A stretch of 13,208 bases of DNA, from IMG/VR virus record IMGVR_UViG_2671180439_000003, one strand, 5' to 3'. The translations under genes and the position numbers were made by a program. Positions 1 through 13,208 of the stretch are shown here, in pieces. This DNA is from a virus. Taxonomy: Duplodnaviria > Heunggongvirae > Uroviricota > Caudoviricetes. The notes under the pieces were generated by a model. It did not search any database, was not told the origin of the DNA, and saw only the letters and a program-made list of their open reading frames with translations. Position 1 is the stretch's first letter, and each line of letters starts with the position of its first letter.

Positions 1-245
1 GTCATCCATATCACCACGTCAAAGGGTGACAGCAGGCTCATAAGACGCCCCAGCGTCGCCATAGTGCGCTCACCGAATACGTGCGCAACAACCGTCTTCC
101 GGAGACTGTCATACGCGTAAAACAGCCAGCGCTGGCGCGATTTAGCCCCGACATAGCCCCACTGTTCGTCCATTTCCGCGCAGACGATGACGTCACTGCC
201 CGGCTGTATGCGCGAGGTTACCGACTGCGGCCTGAGTTTTTTAAG
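1..245 (-). CDS. insB: IS1 InsB frame (C-terminal part of the InsAB' transposase), partial; truncated by the window edge
   Basis: Hand translation of the -1 frame after the A6C motif gives ...[64 protein letters not shown]..., which matches recalled IS1 InsB. The ORF runs off the start of the window. Confidence 0.8.
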
Positions 246-493
246 TGACGTAAAATCGTGTTTAGGCCAACGCCCATAATGCGGGCTGTTGCCCGGCATC
301 CAACGCCATTCATGGCCATATAAATGATTTTCTGGTGCGTACCGGGTTGAGAAGCGGTGTAAGTGAACTGCAGTTGCCATGTTTTACGGCAGTGAGAGCA
401 GAGATAGCGCTGATGTCCGGCGGTGCTTTTGCCGTTACGCACCACCCCGTCAGTAGCTGAACAGGAGGGACAGCTGATAGAAACAGAAGCCAC
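218..493 (-). CDS. insA: IS1 InsA (transposition regulator, N-terminal part of the InsAB' transposase)
   Basis: 91-aa [43 protein letters not shown]... ending ...[11 protein letters not shown], recognised as IS1 InsA with zinc-finger cysteines. It ends just after the A6C slippery site. Confidence 0.95.
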
Positions 494-543
494 TGGAGCA
501 CCTCAAAAACACCATCATACACTAAATCAGTAAGTTGGCAGCA

Positions 544-840
544 TCACCCATCCGAGCATCTGCGTTTCTTCGCGATAGAACGCAGTGAGATACCTATAAC
601 AAAGTGAGCAATGATCAGTTCATATTCTTCTGGTTTATATTTACGCAACCGCACCACACAACCGTCTATCATGATCCCTTCATCATCATCACACTGGAGG
701 CGTGACTTTTTACCGTGTGGTAAAAGCCCCTTGAAGCCTGCCGCGATCGGCTGCCAGTCCACTCCGCTGTTATCTGCTGCTGCCCATGCTCCCCAGCGGT
801 CCAAAACCTCGTACATATCACGCATCAAATCTCTCCACAA
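544..840 (-). CDS. Hypothetical prophage early-operon protein, C-terminally truncated by the IS1 insertion (probable true start is the ATG at 825)
   Basis: ORF ends ...SIAKKRRCSDG with its last codon and TGA stop (546-544) supplied by the IS1 terminal repeat (IS1 boundary at 548). The track start at 840 is TTG; an in-frame ATG with a gagag RBS-like sequence lies at 825-823. Confidence 0.4.
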   Translation of the reverse strand: MWRDLMRDMYEVLDRWGAWAAADNSGVDWQPIAAGFKGLLPHGKKSRLQCDDDEGIMIDGCVVRLRKYKPEEYELIIAHFVIGISLRSIAKKRRCSDG

Positions 841-842
841 AA

Positions 843-1232
843 TCAGGCCAGCACACCAATTGCCAGCGCGCGATCGATAAATCGAAAAATTAGCTCCAGT
901 TGGGAACCATACTTCTCTTCAAATGCCACAGTGTCCACATGCAACTCGTCGTGATGCTTTCTGCACAAAGGCAATACAAAGAGGTCATGCGCTTTTGTAC
1001 CCTGGCGACGCGCCTTACGCGTTAACCAGCCTTCTGCTTCCAGCCGTGCGATAGCCGTTCTGACGGTACTCATCCCCGCGCCAATCTGGCGGGCAATGGT
1101 TTCAATTGATGGCCAGCACACACCTTCGTCATTACTGAAATCAGCCAGGCGGGCCATAATTGCCACACTGGATAATTTCATGCCTGACGCTGCGCAACCA
1201 TCCCATACATAGCCGGTTAATTTAGTGCTCAT
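843..1232 (-). CDS. Phage early-region helix-turn-helix DNA-binding protein (replication-organiser-like N-terminal domain)
   Basis: 129-aa ORF with an HTH-like segment WPSIETIARQIGAGMSTVRTAIARLEAEGWL. Its ATG (1232) overlaps the stop of the upstream gene, as in phage coupled operons. Same strand as the Cro-like gene. Confidence 0.6.
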   Translation of the reverse strand: MSTKLTGYVWDGCAASGMKLSSVAIMARLADFSNDEGVCWPSIETIARQIGAGMSTVRTAIARLEAEGWLTRKARRQGTKAHDLFVLPLCRKHHDELHVDTVAFEEKYGSQLELIFRFIDRALAIGVLA

Positions 1233-1646
1233 GACCGACCTCTATTTCCCTGAATTTACGACGAAACTGTTCGAGCGGGCTGAAGCACTCATGCTCATAG
1301 CCTTCGCGGAGGTAGATAACCCGTTGTGTTTCCGGCTCCCAACGAATGACTCTGACGGGCACTCCGTAGTGATCTTTGAACCAGCGGTTAACTTCTCGCA
1401 AAGGACTGTCTCCTTCTGCCGGTTGAAATCCCCCACAGCCCACTCAGCAAAGCTGTGGGTTACAATTTCCCTGTCACCTGGTACATTCACTGCATAGCAA
1501 TACTCCACCTTCGCTTTTCCACCCGGTACAGGAAGCGCAATCAGTTGCGAGTGACGGTAGTGTGTTGTTATAAACTGTTCATGCGTTAGTTTCTCCACAG
1601 TCACGACACGCCACGGCGCCCGGAGCTGCACACTCGCGGGCGTCAT
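1222..1646 (-). pseudogene. Phage early-operon gene that appears frame-disrupted at a C5/G5 homopolymer (1430-1434); two partial frames (1242-1745 track ORF and 1222-1443) would fuse if the run were G6
   Basis: Frame B reads ...[11 protein letters not shown] and then degenerates into a serine-rich tail. Frame A reads [72 protein letters not shown] and ends with a stop overlapping the next gene's ATG. By hand translation, one extra G in gctgtgggggatttc joins B to A. Confidence 0.35.
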
Positions 1647-2130
1647 TACTTTCTGAAATGCAAAATATTTTGTAGACCAGTGCTGCATGCTCCTGCAGCT
1701 TCGAAATTGAGAGATACAGCTCGTCGTTAATTGCTGTTTTCTCATGCGGTTCCACTACACCGTCTTCAATTGCTGAACGAATCTGTTTTGAATAACTGCC
1801 GATCTGTTCAATGACCTCCAGCAGGCGTTGGTTGATATCGGCGTTGTCCACATCCTCGACATCAGGAAGAGACACAAAGACGCCATTTGCAGACTGCGCC
1901 ACAGCGTCAGCAATGAAGTGAGTTCCACCAGCACGTTGCAAAATCATTGCCCATCCCAGCGGGAAAATCTGATCGCCATCGGCACGAAGGCGGTTAAATA
2001 ATGCGTTCTCTGTTACATCCAGCCAGTCAGCAGCTTCAGCGTACCCCCCCGGCAACGCTGCGATAGTTTTTCTGACAGCTTTCACGTACCACTCAGGCTG
2101 TTTTTCTACTTTCCAGTGATGCTTACCCAC
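1579..2130 (-). CDS. Prophage early protein of unknown function (e14 YmfL-like by position and recollection)
   Basis: 183-aa ORF. GTG start at 2130 is preceded by GGAGG 6 nt upstream and overlaps the Cro-like gene stop by 8 bp. It is second in the leftward early operon. Confidence 0.6.
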
Positions 2131-2383
2131 GGTTCACCTCCTGTTCCTGTGGTTTAAACCCATTCTGGTTTTGGCTAGATTGAAAACGTGCCGGATAAAG
2201 AATCTGCATTTCGCTGACTTCACCCTTAAAAAAATTGGCTAATCGTTCTGCAAGCTCGATAGATGGAATCTGCTCCAGCCTCTCAATACGACTCAACGTC
2301 GCTGGATTGACTTGAACACCCGCAGCAACATGCTGCAAAGTGAAACCATGCGCCTTACGCACATTTCGTAATGGTGATTGCAT
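2123..2383 (-). CDS. Cro-like HTH transcriptional regulator (XRE family)
   Basis: ATG at 2383 preceded by GGAGGG with correct spacing. HTH segment GFTLQHVAAGVQVNPATLSRIE. Divergent from the CI-like repressor across a 97-bp operator-like region. Confidence 0.7.
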   Translation of the reverse strand: MQSPLRNVRKAHGFTLQHVAAGVQVNPATLSRIERLEQIPSIELAERLANFFKGEVSEMQILYPARFQSSQNQNGFKPQEQEVNRG

Positions 2384-2480
2384 ATGCCCTCCAAATATTG
2401 CGCGTTATGCATGTTATTTCACGCAATTATTTTGCGCAAGTTGATTTGCTTATCACGCAATAAAGAAATGTAATAAACGC
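2384..2480. promoter_or_regulatory. Divergent promoter/operator region between the Cro-like and CI-like genes
   Basis: Repeated motif tcacgcaat at 2419-2427 and 2453-2461, palindrome ttgcgcaa at 2432-2439, and related ttgcgcg at 2398-2404. A candidate -35 TTGCTT (2446-2451) and -10 TGTAAT (2469-2474) on the plus strand would place the transcript start at or next to the repressor ATG. Confidence 0.5.
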
Positions 2481-3173
2481 ATGAACATAGGAAACCGAGT
2501 CAGACAACTTCGCCAAGCGAAGAACATGAAAATCGCCGATCTCGCTGAAGCAATAGGAGTAGATGCGGCGAACATCTCGCGCTTAGAAACGGGTAAGCAA
2601 AAACAATTTACCGAACAAACACTGAGTAATATTGCCAAGAGCTTAGGTGTTGATATTGCTGATCTCTTTACCTCTGCCCACAAAAGTAATACTGTATATA
2701 AAAACAGTAATAATGAGGATGTTGCGCAGGTGAAGGATGTGTTCCGTATTGAAATGCTGGATATCAGTGCCAGTGCGGGAAATGGCCTTATCCAGGGCGG
2801 TGATGTCATTGATGTGATTCATGCCATCGAATACAGAACTGATAATGCTGTATCAATGTTCGGCGGACGACCAGCCAATCACATCAAAGTTATCAACGTT
2901 CGTGGGGACAGTATGTGTCCAACCATTGAGCCAGGAGATCTCATCTTCGTTGATATCAGCATCAATCAGTTTGATGGTGATGGTATATATGTCTTTGGTT
3001 TTGATGACAAAATATACGTTAAAAGACTTCAAATGATTCCTGACAAACTGCTGGTGATTTCTGATAACCAGATTTACCGTGAATGGGGAATTACTAGCGA
3101 AAACGAACACCGATTCATGGTCTTTGGAAAGGTCTTAATCAGTCAGTCGCAAACCCTTAAGAGACATAATTAA
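2481..3173 (+). CDS. CI-like phage repressor: N-terminal XRE-type HTH plus C-terminal S24 (LexA/CI-type) autopeptidase domain; resembles e14 CohE
   Basis: 230-aa ORF. HTH MKIADLAEAIGVDAANISRLETGKQ. S24 catalytic serine in VRGDSMCPTIEPGDLIFVD and lysine in KIYVKRLQM. Followed by an intrinsic terminator. Confidence 0.85.
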   Translation: MNIGNRVRQLRQAKNMKIADLAEAIGVDAANISRLETGKQKQFTEQTLSNIAKSLGVDIADLFTSAHKSNTVYKNSNNEDVAQVKDVFRIEMLDISASAGNGLIQGGDVIDVIHAIEYRTDNAVSMFGGRPANHIKVINVRGDSMCPTIEPGDLIFVDISINQFDGDGIYVFGFDDKIYVKRLQMIPDKLLVISDNQIYREWGITSENEHRFMVFGKVLISQSQTLKRHN

Positions 3174-3192
3174 CCTCAATATCCCATCCATC

Positions 3193-3217
3193 GGCCACCT
3201 AAAGGTGGCTTTTTATT
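3193..3217 (+). terminator. Rho-independent terminator downstream of the CI-like repressor gene
   Basis: Hairpin gccacc/ggtggc (3194-3199 and 3204-3209) with a 4-nt loop, followed by tttttatt (3210-3217). Confidence 0.6.
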
Positions 3218-3228
3218 ACCTATAAATT

Positions 3229-3264
3229 TGCATATCTCGCAAATATCACTTGCATATCTCGCAA
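3229..3264 (+). repeat. Two direct copies of the 14-bp sequence tgcatatctcgcaa, 22 bp centre to centre
   Basis: Exact copies at 3229-3242 and 3251-3264, in noncoding DNA just after the repressor terminator. Confidence 0.5.
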
Positions 3265-3429
3265 TTTAATTTTATCTTTTGTTCCAGACCAACTACAGGA
3301 TTACAACAAAATCTGGTTGCAACACGGTGCATGTGTCGTAAGCAGTCAGTAAATGTCAAAAACGAACAGGCAGGACGCCCACGAAGTAGCCGCCTGGGGC
3401 ATATGAAGTCCAGGATGATTCGTTAGCAA

Positions 3430-3453
3430 CAAAAAAGCGTCCTACAGGACGCT
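3430..3453 (-). terminator. Rho-independent terminator on the minus strand, at the 3' end of the Ag43 remnant ORF
   Basis: Stem agcgtcc/ggacgct (3436-3442 and 3447-3453) with loop taca; on the minus strand it is followed by a T6 run (plus-strand aaaaaa at 3430-3435). Confidence 0.5.
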
Positions 3454-4810
3454 TAGCTCTTTAACAATCTGGTCCCCATCAACAAGTAACTGATAACTTG
3501 AGGAGGTGTGAAATGCACAAAACAGAACCAAAAATCGTCGCGCCCGGATGCCCAGACGGAAGCCGGCACGCACATGTTGTGCACTGCCATGCCCGAACTT
3601 CACATAACCGGCGTTATCCTGGCCGTCATCCAGGGAGAGTCCCTGCCAGGTGTACTGCAGTTGCGGCTCCAGCATCAGATTGTCAGTGATACTGAAGAGC
3701 AGACCGGTTTCCAGTGAGCCCAGCCAGCCCCAGCCCCGGGCGCGGAAGTCGTTATTGTCCGATGACGCTTTCATGCTGTGGCGGGTTCCCTGTGCCACAA
3801 TGTCAGCCCACAGGCCGGAGGACGTGTGTGTCAGATTCAGGTATCCGCCCAGGCTGCCGGCATCATCCCGGACCGTGCCGGCGCGGGAACCGTCATCATC
3901 CTTAACATCAACGGAAGAATGGCCTGCAGCACCATATACCCCTGTCGTCAGAGACATACCGGCAACCTCTGTTCTCAGCAGGTCACCCTCCAGACGGACG
4001 AAGCCATAGCTGCCGCTGCTTTCCGGCGTGGCTCCACGGGCAATACCCCCCATTCAGCGTGGTATCCAGTGCGTGACCATGTACAGTCTGGTCGCCGCCG
4101 GCATAAACCACAGTGGTATTTGCCGTTCCTTCAGCAGCCACAATCTGACGACCATTTTTATTGATGGTGGTGCGTACGGCATCTCCGTAGACGGTCTGCC
4201 CTGTATCACCATTTTCTGCATCCGGTCCCCCTTCCGCGCCGGTATTCACAACCGTGTCGGTTGCCATTGCGCCGGATTTGACGGCCTGCCAGCCCTTCTC
4301 ATTAATGACGGTACCCGTTGCAATCCCGCCTTCATGTACCCACTGCTCACCGCCGTTCAGAGTGGTATTCACTGCCTGCCCCTGAAGGCTCTGTCCGCCT
4401 CCGGCACTGATAACCGTGTCTGAAACGCTTCCTCCGGCATTCACTCTCTGAAGACCACCACCGGTGACAGTAGTGTTGTTGGCGGTACCGCCATTTTGTA
4501 TCCATTGGCCGCCGGTATTCGCCTCGTTATCCGGCCCATACTCCAGCCCGGTACTGATGGTCATTCCGTTGGCCGTACCGAGAACAATCTGGTTGTCATG
4601 ATTTGTCAGTGTTCCGCCGCTCACGGTTTCTCCCGCCTGTACGACCGTGTCAGCAGCCAGTGCCGGGACTGATGTGACAGCAGCAAGAGACAGCACAATC
4701 GCCACACCGGCGCATTTTCCCCGTGAGCGGGCCAGTTCGGAAGCCACCACCAGGGTGCCCGTAATGTGATTCCATACCAGCCTGTAGCTGGTGTTCAGAT
4801 GTCGTTTCAT
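3442..4810 (-). pseudogene. flu: Antigen 43 (Ag43) self-associating autotransporter gene, disrupted: N-terminal passenger part, internal deletion/frameshift near 4046-4051, and 3' truncation of the beta-barrel domain
   Basis: N-terminal ORF begins MKRHLNTSYRLVWNHITG... with a long autotransporter signal peptide, then ...AADTVVQAGETVSGG... repeats; ATG at 4810 has an AGGA RBS. The second ORF in another frame contains ...GGIARGATPESSGSYGFVRLEGD...YVKFGHGSAQHVRAGFRLG, then non-barrel sequence with no C-terminal aromatic residue. Total about 1.37 kb, against roughly 3.1 kb recalled for intact flu. Confidence 0.85.
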
Positions 4811-5019
4811 CAGCTTTTCCTTACAGAGGGTGAATAAAAAAGCCGGTACCCACAAATGTGGATACCGGCAGGTACAAAACAGCATGGTCAGATAAAGTGG
4901 TTTTTCCCGGACATAAATGCTTCCCCTCTCTCATCCGCCAGAGAAGTATCAGTCCGTTGTGTGCAATTCCGTTCTGCATGATGAAGAGATTCAACTGCCT
5001 TTTCGCAGGCCATTAACCA

Positions 5020-6318: not shown

Positions 6319-7875
6319 ATGACAAGTATTCAACAACGAGCAGAACTGCACCGCCAGATATGGCAAATTGCCAATGATGTCAGAGGTTCTGTTGACGGAT
6401 GGGATTTTAAGCAATACGTTCTGGGCGCGCTTTTCTACCGTTTTATCAGCGAAAATTTTTCCAGCTATATTGAAGCCGGTGATGACAGTATCTGTTATGC
6501 GAAACTGGATGACAGCGTAATTACTGATGACATTAAAGACGATGCCATCAAAACTAAAGGCTACTTCATCTACCCAAGTCAGCTTTTCTGCAACGTAGCT
6601 GCGAAAGCAAATACCAATGACAGACTGAATGCAGATTTAAACAGTATCTTCGTTGCTATCGAAAGTTCTGCTTACGGTTACCCTTCAGAAGCTGACATCA
6701 AAGGTTTGTTTGCTGATTTCGATACCACCAGTAACCGCCTGGGTAACACCGTTAAGGATAAAAATGCCCGCCTGGCTGCGGTTCTGAAAGGGGTTGAAGG
6801 GTTAAAGCTTGGCGACTTTAACGAACATCAGATTGACCTGTTCGGCGATGCCTATGAGTTCCTGATTTCTAACTATGCGGCGAATGCTGGTAAGTCAGGC
6901 GGCGAGTTCTTTACACCGCAGCACGTCTCCAGGCTGATTGCACAACTGGCAATGCACGGCCAGACCCACGTTAACAAAATCTACGACCCGGCAGCAGGTT
7001 CCGGTTCGCTGTTGTTGCAGGCTAAAAAACAGTTTGATGACCATATCATCGAAGAAGGTTTTTTTGGTCAGGAAATCAACCATACGACCTATAACCTGGC
7101 GCGTATGAACATGTTTTTGCACAACATCAACTACGACAAGTTTGATATCAAGTTGGGCAATACGCTGACTGAGCCGCACTTCAGAGATGAAAAACCGTTT
7201 GATGCCATCGTTTCTAACCCGCCGTATTCGGTGAAATGGATTGGCAGCGATGACCCGACGCTGATTAACGATGAACGTTTTGCCCCGGCTGGCGTTCTGG
7301 CCCCCAAATCCAAAGCTGACTTCGCGTTTGTATTACATGCGCTGAACTATCTTTCGGCCAAAGGTCGTGCTGCGATTGTCTGCTTCCCGGGTATTTTTTA
7401 CCGTGGCGGCGCGGAGCAGAAAATCCGTCAGTATCTGGTCGATAATAACTATGTCGAAACCGTGATTTCACTGGCACCGAACCTGTTCTTTGGCACCACC
7501 ATTGCCGTAAACATTCTGGTGCTGTCTAAACATAAAACGGATACCAAAGTTCAGTTTATTGACGCCAGCGAACTGTTCAAAAAAGAGACTAACAACAATA
7601 TCCTGACCGATGCCCATATCGAACAGATTATGCAGGTATTTGCCAGCAAGGAAGATGTTGCTCATCTGGCGAAATCTGTCACGTTTGAGACCGTTGTCGC
7701 GAATGACTATAACCTGTCGGTAAGCAGCTATGTGGAAGCGAAAGATAACCGCGAAATTATCGATATCGGTGAGCTGAATGCTGAGCTGAAAACCACGGTC
7801 AGCAAAATCGACCAGTTGCGCAAAGATATTGATGCGATTGTGGCTGAAATTGAAGGCTGCGAGGTGCAGAAATGA
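6319..7875 (+). CDS. hsdM: Type I restriction-modification system methyltransferase subunit HsdM (N6-adenine MTase)
   Basis: 518-aa ORF. N-terminal HsdM domain ([34 protein letters not shown]), AdoMet motif [11 protein letters not shown], catalytic motif IV NPPYS. Stop overlaps hsdS start (ATGA at 7872-7875). Confidence 0.95.
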
Positions 7876-9098
7876 GCGAGTTGAGTTATCTGGAAAAATT
7901 GCTGGATGGGGTTGAGGTTGAGTGGTTGCCATTGGGGGAAGTCTCAGCCTTAAGAAGAGGCAGAGTTATGTCAAAGGGATATTTAACTGAAAATTTTGGC
8001 CCATATCCTGTCTATAGCTCTCAAACTGCAAATAATGGGAAAATAGGTTCTATCAATACCTTCGATTTTGATGGCGAATATATAAGCTGGACAACAGATG
8101 GCGCAAATGCAGGCACTATGTTCTATCGAACAGGTAAATTTTCAATAACTAATGTTTGCGGCCTGATTACATTAAAAAGTAAATACTCATTAATCTACAA
8201 ATTTCTGTTTTACTGGCTAACAATAGAAGCCAAAAAACATGTTTACTCAGGAATGGGAAACCCCAAGTTAATGAGTCATCAGGTTGAAAATATACCTGTA
8301 CCAATCCCCTGCCCGGATAATCCGGAAAAATCCCTCGCCATCCAGTCTGAAATCGTTCGGATTCTGGACACATTCAGCGCCCTGACAGCAGAACTGACAG
8401 CAGAACTGACAGCAGAGCTTAACATGCGTAAAAAACAATACAACTACTATCGCGACCAGTTGTTGAGTTTTAATACCGAAGATGTTCCACATTTACCTAT
8501 GGGACAAAAAGATATTGGCGAGTTTATCCGGGGTGGTACTTTTCAGAAAAAAGACTTTATAGATGCAGGTGTAGGGTGCATACACTATGGTCAAATCTAT
8601 ACGTATTACGGAACATATACAGAAAAAACAAAAACATATATTTCAACCGCACTTGCAAAAAAATGCAAGAAGGCTCAAAAGGGAGATTTGATTATCGCAA
8701 CTACTAGTGAGAATGATGAGGATGTATGTAAAGCTGTTGCATGGTTAGGCAGTGAAGATATAGCAGTAAGCAGTGATGCCTGTATTTACAAACATAATTT
8801 AAACCCTAAGTATGTCTCATATTTTTTTCAAACAGAACAATTCCAAAATCAAAAAAGACAGTATATTACTGGCGCAAAAGTTCGGCGTGTAAATGCTGAT
8901 AATTTATCTAAGATATTAATTCCAGTTCCTTCTATGGAGATACAGGAACGTATAGTATCCATTCTCGATAAATTCGACACCCTGACAAACTCCATCACTG
9001 AAGGTCTTCCGCGTGAAATCGAGTTGCGCCAGAAACAATACGAATACTACCGTGATTTACTGTTCAGTTTCCCGAAACCTGAAACTGCCAGTAATTAA
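7872..9098 (+). CDS. hsdS: Type I R-M specificity subunit HsdS, type IC (EcoR124 family) architecture with two target-recognition domains and a central TAEL-repeat region
   Basis: 408-aa ORF. Conserved N-terminus [23 protein letters not shown], central [58 protein letters not shown]-terminal [40 protein letters not shown]. Two visibly AT-rich variable segments between the conserved blocks. Confidence 0.95.
8385..8420 (+). repeat. Tandem 12-bp repeat (acagcagaactg twice, then acagcagagctt) encoding [12 protein letters not shown] in the HsdS central conserved region
   Basis: Read directly: in-frame copies at 8385-8396, 8397-8408 and 8409-8420; the third has two synonymous changes. Confidence 0.9.
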
Positions 9099-9219: not shown

Positions 9220-12200
9220 ATGACTAATCAAACACACACCATTGCTGAATCCAATAACTTTATCGTCCTTGATAAGTACATCAAAGCTGAGCAAACAAGC
9301 GACAGCTACCAGAGCGAATCGGACCTGGAACGTGAACTGATTCAGGACCTGCGGAATCAGGGTTATGAATTTATTTCCGTAAAATCACAGTCGGCAATGC
9401 TGTCCAATGTTCGGGAACAGCTTCAGAGCCTCAATGGTGTGATGTTTAATGACAGCGAGTGGCGGCGCTTCACGGAGCAGTATCTGGACAACCCCAGCGA
9501 TGGTATTCTGGATAAAACCCGTAAAATCCATATCGACTATATCTGCGACTTTATTTTTGACGACGGGCGTCTTGAGAACATCTATCTGATCGATAAAAAG
9601 AATCTCATGCGCAACAAAGTGCAGATTATCCAGCAGTTTGAACAGGCAGGTTCTCACGCTAACCGTTATGACGTAACTATCCTGGTTAATGGCTTGCCTC
9701 TGGTGCAAATCGAACTGAAAAAGCGCGGCGTGGCGATTCGTGAGGCTTTCAACCAGATACATCGTTACAGTAAAGAGAGTTTTAACAGCGAAAATTCCCT
9801 GTTTAAGTATCTGCAACTGTTCGTCATTTCTAACGGCACCGATACCCGTTACTTTGCCAACACCACAAAGCGCGATAAAAACAGTTTTGACTTCACCATG
9901 AACTGGGCGAAATCAGACAACACGCTGATTAAAGACCTCAAAGACTTTACCGCCACCTTTTTCCAGAAACATACTCTGCTGAATGTTCTGGTGAACTACA
10001 GCGTTTTTGACAGTAGTCAGACGCTACTGGTGATGCGACCGTACCAGATTGCAGCTACCGAACGAATTTTATGGAAAATCAACAGTTCCTATAAAGCGAA
10101 AAACTGGTCCACTCCCGAAAGTGGTGGCTTTATCTGGCACACCACCGGTTCCGGTAAAACACTGACCAGCTTTAAAGCCGCGCGTCTGGCAACAGAACTG
10201 GACTTTATTGATAAAGTCTTCTTCGTGGTCGACAGAAAAGACCTCGATTACCAGACGATGAAGGAATATCAGCGTTTTTCGCCAGACAGCGTCAACGGCT
10301 CGGAAAATACCGCAGGCCTTAAACGAAATCTGGATAAGGACGATAACAAAATTATCGTCACTACTATTCAGAAACTCAATAACCTGATGAAAGCAGAAAG
10401 CGACCTGCCTGTATATAATCAGCAAGTGGTGTTCATATTTGATGAATGCCACCGCAGCCAGTTTGGAGAAGCGCAGAAAAACCTGAAGAAGAAATTCAAA
10501 CGCTATTATCAGTTTGGTTTTACCGGCACACCTATTTTCCCGGAAAACGCTTTAGGCTCAGAAACGACCGCCAGCGTATTTGGCCGTGAATTGCATTCGT
10601 ATGTGATTACCGATGCGATTCGAGATGAAAAAGTGCTTAAATTCAAGGTGGACTACAACGATGTGCGGCCACAGTTTAAGTCTTTAGAGACAGAAACTGA
10701 CGAGAAAAAACTAAGTGCGGCTGAAAATCAGCAGGCGTTTCTTCATCCCATGCGTATTCAGGAAATCACGCAATATATTCTGAATAATTTCCGCCAGAAA
10801 ACTCACCGTACCTTCCCTGGCTCAAAAGGTTTTAATGCTATGTTGGCAGTGAGCAGCGTGGATGCCGCGAAAGCCTATTATGCGACGTTTAAACGGTTAC
10901 AAGAAGAAGCCGCTAATAAATCGGCTACCTATAAACCGCTGCGTATTGCGACAATCTTCTCCTTTGCCGCCAATGAAGAACAAAATGCCATTGGTGAAAT
11001 TTCCGATGAAACTTTTGATACCAGCGCAATGGACAGCAGTGCTAAAGAGTTTCTGGACGCTGCAATTCGTGAATATAACAGCCATTTTAAAACTAACTTT
11101 AGCACCGACAGTAACGGTTTTCAGAACTACTATCGTGATTTAGCCCAGCGGGTTAAAAATCAGGATATCGATCTGCTAATTGTCGTGGGGATGTTTTTAA
11201 CCGGCTTCGATGCTCCAACATTGAACACGCTATTCGTCGATAAAAACTTGCGTTTTCACGGCCTGATGCAGGCATTCTCCCGCACCAACCGCATTTATGA
11301 CGCCACTAAAACCTTCGGTAATATCGTCACTTTCCGGGATCTGGAACGCTCAACTATTGATGCCATAACGCTGTTTGGTGACAAAAACACCAAAAATGTG
11401 GTGTTAGAAAAGAGTTATACAGAGTATATGGAAGGCTTTACTGATGCTGCCACTGGTGAAGCTAAACGCGGCTTCATGACAGTAGTTTCAGAACTGGAAC
11501 AACGGTTCCCTGACCCTGCCAGTATTGAAAGTGAAAAAGAGAAGAAAGACTTCGTTAAACTGTTTGGCGAATACCTGCGTGCCGAGAACATCCTGCAAAA
11601 CTATGATGAATTTGCCACGCTGAAAGCCCTGCAACAAATCGATCTGAGCGATCCTGTTGCGGTAGAAAAATTCAAAGCAGAACATTATGTGGATGATGAA
11701 AAGTTCGCTGAATTGCAAACAATTCGTCTCCCTGCTGATCGCAAGATTCAGGATTATCGTTCTGCCTATAACGATATTCGCGACTGGCAGCGCCGTGAGA
11801 AAGAAGCTGAGAAAAAAGAGAAATCAACCACTGACTGGGATGACGTAGTTTTTGAGGTCGATTTGCTGAAGTCTCAGGAAATAAACCTGGATTATATCCT
11901 TGGACTGATTTTCGAACACAACAGACAAAATAAAGGCAAGGGCGAAATGATCGAAGAGGTCAAACGCTTAATTCGTTCAAGCCTAGGGAACCGTGCTAAA
12001 GAGGGCCTGGTGGTCGATTTTATTCAGCAAACGAACCTGGATGATTTACCGGACAAAGCCAGCATCATTGACGCATTCTTTACGTTTGCTCAACGCGAAC
12101 AGCAACGTGAAGCAGAAGCCTTGATCAAAGAAGAAAATCTCAATGAAGAGGCGGCGAAACGCTATATTCGCACATCTTTAAAACGCGAATACGCCACCGA

Positions 12201-12336
12201 AAATGGCACGGAATTAAACGAGACACTGCCCAGACTCAGTCCTTTAAATCCGCAATATAAAACGAAAAAAAAGACTGTTTTTCAAAAAATTAGCGCATTT
12301 ATTGAAAAATTTAAGGGGGTGGGTGGAAAGATTTAG
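9220..12336 (+). CDS. hsdR: Type I R-M restriction subunit HsdR (endonuclease/translocase), EcoR124I-HsdR-like
   Basis: 1038-aa ORF with AAGGA RBS. PD-(D/E)xK residues D151, E165, K167 in [19 protein letters not shown] fall at the positions recalled for the EcoR124I HsdR active site. Helicase motifs TGSGKT, DECH, TGTP. Length equals the recalled EcoR124I HsdR length. Confidence 0.95.

Positions 12337-13208
<872 letters not shown>

Follow-up and report, generated by a model that had tools for sequence, protein, structure and literature searches.

An ISKpn26 element at the stop codon of a chromosomal EcoR124-type hsdR gene probably bridges two formerly separate loci

Results

The hsd genes and the end of hsdR

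The window (the whole 13,208-bp stretch of DNA analysed here) carries, on the plus strand, hsdM (6319–7875; 518 aa, Pfam N6_Mtase/HsdM_N), hsdS (7872–9098; 408 aa, two Pfam Methylase_S domains) and hsdR (9220–12336; 1038 aa), the last encoding an EcoR124-family (type IC) restriction subunit. All three genes are intact, as judged from the ORF list, from Pfam and, for hsdR, from an alignment with EcoR124I HsdR (PDB 2w00) in which residues 1–1038 of the window protein pair with residues 1–1038 of chain 2w00_A (2265 bits). The Pfam domains of HsdR are HSDR_N, SWI2_SNF2/ResIII, T1R_D3-like and EcoR124_C, the C-terminal helical domain, which spans residues 728–1031.

The hsdR stop codon, TAG, occupies 12334–12336 in the ORF list of the window. 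Together with the last T of the preceding ATT codon it forms TTAG (12333–12336), a YTAR-type tetranucleotide that is the left flank of an insertion sequence (IS); the junction reads ...GGA AAG ATT TAG followed directly by GGAAGGTGCGAATAAGCAGG.... An earlier interpretation, made from the DNA letters alone (the sequence-only reading), had placed the stop codon inside a TTAG bordering an IS5-type repeat that starts at 12337, and the window sequence confirms these coordinates. It had further proposed that the protein was left unaltered, assuming that the native gene ends here. Relatives bear this out. The hsdR genes of strains W150 and ET979, whose 3′ flank is uninterrupted, are 96–97% identical to that of the window and end at the identical ...AAG ATT TAG, followed by TAGTAACAAAAGGAAC...; in the uninterrupted relatives L006 and L007, TTAG stands directly before TAGTAACAAAAGG. 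A plasmid homologue (95.9% identical) has its stop at the same codon position, and none of these uninterrupted EcoR124-type genes (W150, ET979, plasmid copy) runs past it. HsdR is unaltered by the IS junction and keeps its native 1038 residues, and the restriction enzyme is expected to be unchanged.

A perfect 12-bp tandem repeat (2.9 copies) is found in hsdS at 8382–8416 and corresponds to three TAEL units in the central region of HsdS. HsdS of PCN061 has two TAEL units and 404 aa versus 408 aa in the window, the loci being otherwise 99.8% identical. TAEL repeat number varies here between near-identical chromosomal loci, a difference that we take to be the classical EcoR124I/EcoR124II repeat-number switch. 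This switch alters the spacer length of the recognition sequence.

The left part of the window is a patchwork. Positions 1 to ∼ 550 are the end of an IS1 (InsA at 218–493). A lambdoid prophage immunity fragment, with genes for a CII/YmfL-like protein (1579–2130, minus strand), a cro-like HTH protein (2123–2383, minus strand) and a cI-like S24/HTH repressor (2481–3173, plus strand), is fused to a broken agn43 autotransporter gene (3442–4885). Only PCN061 and CH4784 have this left part (1–4885) in common with the window; strain Y5 has an intact agn43 and a CP4-like core there.

The element next to hsdR is ISKpn26

All DNA past the stop codon belongs to ISKpn26, an IS5-family element on the minus strand, of which the window holds the first 872 of 1196 bp (12337–13208). 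The IS part of the window aligns over 880 bp, at 98.7–99.4% identity, with elements annotated as ISKpn26 in more than 2,900 plasmid records, and 12337–13208 is at least 99% identical to the RefSeq 'IS5-like element ISKpn26' in thousands of Escherichia coli replicons. With at least 99% identity to copies in thousands of plasmids and chromosomes this is no chance match, and the IS5-family assignment of the sequence-only reading can be narrowed to ISKpn26.

Since the window stops within the element, which extends past its edge with an expected end at ∼ 13532, the full copy was read in strain Y5 and in PCN061, the closest public relative (99.8% identity across all 13,208 bases). It is 1196 bp long in both (6638–7833 of locus L001 and 12638–13833 of locus L014). 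The 16-bp terminal inverted repeat next to hsdR (GGAAGGTGCGAATAAG, 12337–12352) agrees with its far-end counterpart (GGAAGGTGCGAACAAG) in 15 of 16 bases. The 3′ part of the transposase gene (12484–13208, minus strand) supplies the C-terminal 240 codons of a protein of 326 aa (ORF list, RefSeq, Pfam); its full copy (6785–7765 of locus L001) matches Pfam DDE_Tnp_1 at 4.3e-34 and DUF772 at 3.3e-21. ISKpn26 abuts hsdR with its IRR, the end that lies past the transposase stop, hence hsdR and the transposase gene are convergent. A 63-aa chimeric ORF (12311–12502, minus strand; RefSeq hypothetical protein WP_306315095.1) has its start within ISKpn26, runs out through the terminal repeat and stops in the strand antisense to the hsdR 3′ end. 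ORFs that read outward in a similar way have been annotated beside other ISKpn26 copies; the one here is probably spurious, an annotation artefact.

The 4-bp YTAR target of IS5 has been documented from 220 reconstructed duplications (PMC5009759), and a 4-bp CTAG duplication has been reported for ISKpn26 itself (PMC8023600); TTAG fits this target, as the sequence-only reading had noted. The non-IS part of the window contains 106 YTAR sites, of which 39 lie within hsdR, and the site at the stop codon is the only one of these 39 at which HsdR is spared. The end of hsdS also carries a YTAR site (TTAA). YTAR always contains TAA or TAG, and a stop codon needs only a preceding pyrimidine to be a target; hence it is a predictable and benign outcome, and no surprise, that an IS5-family end abuts one.

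The flanks of ISKpn26 derive from different loci

The sequence-only reading looked to the far end of the element for a matching 4 bp, and TTAG does follow that end directly in Y5 and PCN061. It is, however, not a demonstrated duplication, since the right flank comes from another locus: it consists of the last 12 codons of a different, truncated gene of 152 aa, followed by a pectin-utilisation module. In WP9-S17-ESBL-11 this flank is free of the IS and reads ...CATTGTTCTA TTAG TTTGCATTC..., inside an intact 152-aa ORF that lies before a CPBP (Rce1-like) protease gene; the match between WP9-S17-ESBL-11 and Y5 (8,054 bp, 99.7%) begins with its first base exactly at TTAG. The ORF is described as a membrane-protein gene preceding the CPBP protease gene and an oligogalacturonate-utilisation module. 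It is a real conserved gene, because a pap island contains a paralogue with 94% identity and the very same C-terminus (LLVCIHSLITTIK). Starting as it does 12 codons before the end of this gene, the right flank is what remains of a truncated gene, and hsdR is not the body that it lacks. The native flank of hsdR (TAGTAACAAAAGG..., ∼ 14 kb) is absent; it has been lost from the first base past the stop and is not what comes after the IS.

Removal of the IS and of one TTAG does not restore a sequence known to be uninterrupted in relatives, as each IS-free flank has another partner. The reconstructed empty site, an 800-bp query made up of 400 bp of the hsdR 3′ end including TTAG and 400 bp of the right flank (compare GGAAAGATTTAGTTTGCATTCATTCACTG and GGAAAGATTTAGTTTGCATTC), found no match at a coverage of at least 80% in 5,426 complete E. 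coli genomes. Matches cover one half each, and those to the right half begin exactly at TTAG. Two precursor junctions were also sought: A, in which the 152-aa ORF runs into the left end of the IS, and B, in which the right end of the IS meets the native flank of hsdR. Junction A had no true match in the 5,426 complete E. coli genomes; four apparent matches have no bearing on it, as they come from a paralogous locus in a pap island, where an IS5 follows the CPBP gene. Junction B was likewise absent from these genomes, and the exact junction k-mers gave no match in GTDB species-representative genomes or JGI metagenomes.

A replaced cargo segment downstream of hsdR

The restriction–modification (R-M) island is CP4-like and integrative, with the order DUF4942 ... 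CbtA/YeeU ... antirestriction ... Ag43 ... GTPase, then hsdMSR. It stands at tRNA-Thr (thrW) in Y5 (L011), next to tRNA-Ile in ET979 (L012/L013) and next to nfeF in W150 (L015). Y5 and ET979 are collinear until the hsdR TAG, and homology is back right after the Y5 IS1, whose outer end is the point of resumption; from there a LacI-family regulator, a maltoporin and galactan-utilisation genes are shared up to the integrase end (20.9 kb at 97.8%). W150 shares the ET979 island backbone. The intervening stretch in ET979 and W150 comprises ∼ 14.4 kb of IS fragments, a group II intron and raffinose/sucrose genes. In Y5 it is 11.5 kb long and consists of ISKpn26, the ORF remnant, the genes for CPBP, a beta-helix protein, an MFS transporter, a cupin, a dehydrogenase, oligogalacturonate lyase and RpiB, and IS1. 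The foreign module beyond ISKpn26 amounts to ∼ 9 kb in the lineage of the window. As the interval differs between shared backbones, ISKpn26 at the hsdR stop forms the left edge of a cargo segment that has been replaced. The right region of PCN061 is too rearranged (IS3, prophage) to inform on the deleted interval.

A composite transposon (ISKpn26–module–ISKpn26) was considered and rejected: the right boundary is IS1 in Y5 and IS3 in PCN061, and in WP9-S17 the ISKpn26 copy by which the oligogalacturonate lyase gene is cut short has TTAG and CTAA as its flanks, which do not match (L010, 6513–7718). Non-matching 4-bp flanks are also found at further IS5-family copies in L013 (46613–47833, TTAA/ATAA) and L009 (∼ 6971–8165, TTAA/CTAA). 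These three copies likewise sit at rearrangement junctions, that of L010 at the other end of the same pectin module.

Some further observations concern the island as a whole. An element of roughly 50 kb, with the CP4-like core, the GTPase gene, hsdMSR, variable cargo, galactan-utilisation genes and AlpA, is present at three chromosomal sites in three strains. The integrase WP_047928884.1 is identical in ET979 and W150; the Y5 annotation shows no integrase gene in the stretch from the island to tRNA-Thr. About 20 kb to the left of the window region, Y5 has an S8 peptidase and AAA ATPase gene pair (L008, 14976–18422) inside a P4-like satellite element (ogr/delta, psu, integrase) that adjoins the R-M island. 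The pair may be defence hotspot cargo.

Origin of the junction

Joints made by a transposase characteristically have the IS end exactly at a YTAR site, as here, and this part of the earlier proposal, that the joint falls exactly at the stop codon, stands. A simple insertion is not supported, since the flanks are non-contiguous and the empty site was found in 0 of 5,426 genomes. Comparison of the sequences suggests instead, with good probability, that one ISKpn26 copy bridges two TTAG sites that were never adjacent, following an old, IS-mediated swap or deletion of the downstream DNA. The left TTAG would be that of the hsdR stop and the right one that 12 codons before the end of the 152-aa gene, and the interval that originally followed hsdR would have been replaced by ISKpn26 and the foreign pectin module. 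Two routes can be envisaged. In the first, the hsdR TTAG and the 152-aa ORF would each have carried an ISKpn26, both oriented alike, and homologous recombination between these copies would have left a single hybrid one. In the second, a single copy in the 152-aa ORF would attack the hsdR TTAG on the same molecule, an intramolecular transposition with adjacent deletion. Both would give the same product. We regard the first as slightly more likely, because recombination between IS copies often causes deletions in E. coli (98 of 857 IS events were deletions between homologous copies; PMC5009759) and because other IS5-family copies have non-matching flanks. The order of events and the route we infer from sister islands that are 96–98% identical and lie at other chromosomal sites, rather than from a direct ancestor, because neither precursor junction was found.

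The strongest rival is that ISKpn26 simply inserted into a TTAG at which hsdR already abutted TTTGCATTC..., in an unsampled ancestor, duplicating the TTAG and merely pushing what lay downstream 1.2 kb further away. A single insertion would give what is seen, a full-length element of 1196 bp whose terminal repeats are intact and which has TTAG at either end, and ISKpn26 is known to make 4-bp duplications (PMC8023600). The failure to find either precursor junction in the E. coli genomes, GTDB representatives or JGI metagenomes also counts against the bridging of two sites. However, besides the missing empty site, the right flank is a truncated conserved gene whose lost body is not hsdR, and both uninterrupted sister islands (W150, ET979) carry a different hsdR flank. 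A simple insertion would moreover require an earlier, unrelated fusion of the two loci at exactly the tetranucleotide later picked by the IS. The matching TTAG itself is unremarkable, because only four tetranucleotides are allowed and two independent YTAR sites agree by chance in ∼ 25–40% of cases (our calculation, with genomic site frequencies from PMC5009759). We consider this explanation improbable and retain the bridging of two separate TTAG sites as the preferred reading.

Transcription past the stop codon

The 3′ untranslated region of hsdR has been replaced from its first base, and the hsdR transcript would now be expected to read into the IS, antisense to the convergent transposase mRNA. 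The sequence-only reading held that the native 3′ UTR and terminator had been removed. The first half of this is correct. Loss of a terminator is unsupported, because a simple scan found no intrinsic-terminator-like site in 860 bp of the native hsdR flank. When both 3′ flanks of hsdR, native and IS-derived, were scanned for terminators and promoters, nothing exceeded chance. It is very unlikely that the insertion was functionally selected, be it as a terminator, for regulatory or antisense control of hsdR, or to tune restriction via mRNA stability. The junction is stably inherited with hsdMSR intact in 201 genomes, and the IS has, 99 nt past the stop at 12435–12448, a weak hairpin with a T-run behind it; yet the two weak matches of this kind in the IS part equal the shuffle expectation (1.6), the native flank shows no terminator to lose, clonal inheritance alone accounts for persistence, and the whole locus is readily lost in relatives.

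Distribution and later rearrangements

The left junction, hsdR to IS, is present in 201 of the 5,426 complete E. coli genomes, and the right junction, IS to CPBP gene, in ∼ 30. That the whole arrangement is an assembly or annotation artefact, such as a collapsed IS copy joining two contigs, can practically be dismissed: IS copies are classic misassembly sites and the window ends inside one, but the left junction recurs in these 201 independently assembled complete genomes, ∼ 23 of which have the full hsdR–IS–CPBP structure with an intact IS, ESBL_DR28 has the same structure with IS903B nested in the IS, and Y5 contains this single ISKpn26 copy only, so that there is nothing to collapse.

The sequence-only reading had also suggested that the IS could serve as a handle for rearrangement of the R-M locus, and four relatives agree with this. 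In ESBL_DR28 (L018) the IS903B lies at ∼ 934–942 of ISKpn26, with hsdR and the CPBP gene still flanking. NDM6 (L017) has kept hsdR and the left half of ISKpn26, and the part beyond IS903B is replaced by prophage DNA. H106 (L004) has kept IS903B, the right-hand ISKpn26 fragment and the CPBP gene, without hsdMSR. In A23 (L003) an IS3 has inserted in ISKpn26, and hsdMSR and ∼ 36 kb more, up to yagU, are lost.

Discussion

Taken alone, the feature is an ordinary IS junction, already contained in the RefSeq annotation of ∼ 200 genomes; the element, its target preference and the junction were known, and their importance is small. The IS nevertheless marks a cargo-exchange point of a mobile island and has seeded further IS903B and IS3 events, by which some relatives lost their type I R-M system. 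Such losses could affect DNA uptake barriers in carbapenemase-associated strains among the matches (isolates NDM3–NDM6, 'strain 167'). A more general lesson is that a matching 4-bp flank is weak evidence for simple insertion of an IS5-family element, because only four target tetranucleotides exist.

We also speculate, without much confidence, that IS5-family elements could settle on pyrimidine-preceded stop codons and so leave the ORF intact. Such 'stop-codon docking' may be systematically enriched among fixed IS5/ISKpn26 copies, and these might then provide portable homology through which genomic islands exchange cargo modules. If true, it would allow the kind of module swap that hsdR and the pectin module appear to have undergone here.

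The R-M genes resemble the type IC systems EcoR124I and EcoR124II (plasmid R124; PDB 2w00) in the equal length of HsdR, its end-to-end alignment with very few substitutions, the gene order hsdM–hsdS–hsdR and an HsdS with the TAEL repeat. In contrast to these, the window system is chromosomal, in a CP4-like integrative island and adjoining a YeeP/YkfA-type GTPase gene, and the plasmid copies have other DNA after the hsdR stop.

The element has everything by which ISKpn26, of the IS5 group in the IS5 family, is recognized: a length of ∼ 1.2 kb (1196 bp), 16-bp inverted repeats beginning GGAAGGTGCGAA, a 326-aa DDE transposase (DDE_Tnp_1), near-identity (at least 99%) to annotated copies and 4-bp YTAR flanks. 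It differs from them in context only, its two 4-bp flanks coming from different original target sites. The arrangement resembles the deletions and segment replacements that IS elements mediate, by homologous recombination between copies (PMC5009759) or by adjacent deletion, in that one IS is left between formerly separate sequences with each junction at a canonical target site; neighbouring IS1, IS3 and IS903B copies behave alike in relatives. Whereas the flanks left by such events are usually non-matching, as in L010, L013 and L009, both are TTAG here and mimic a target-site duplication.
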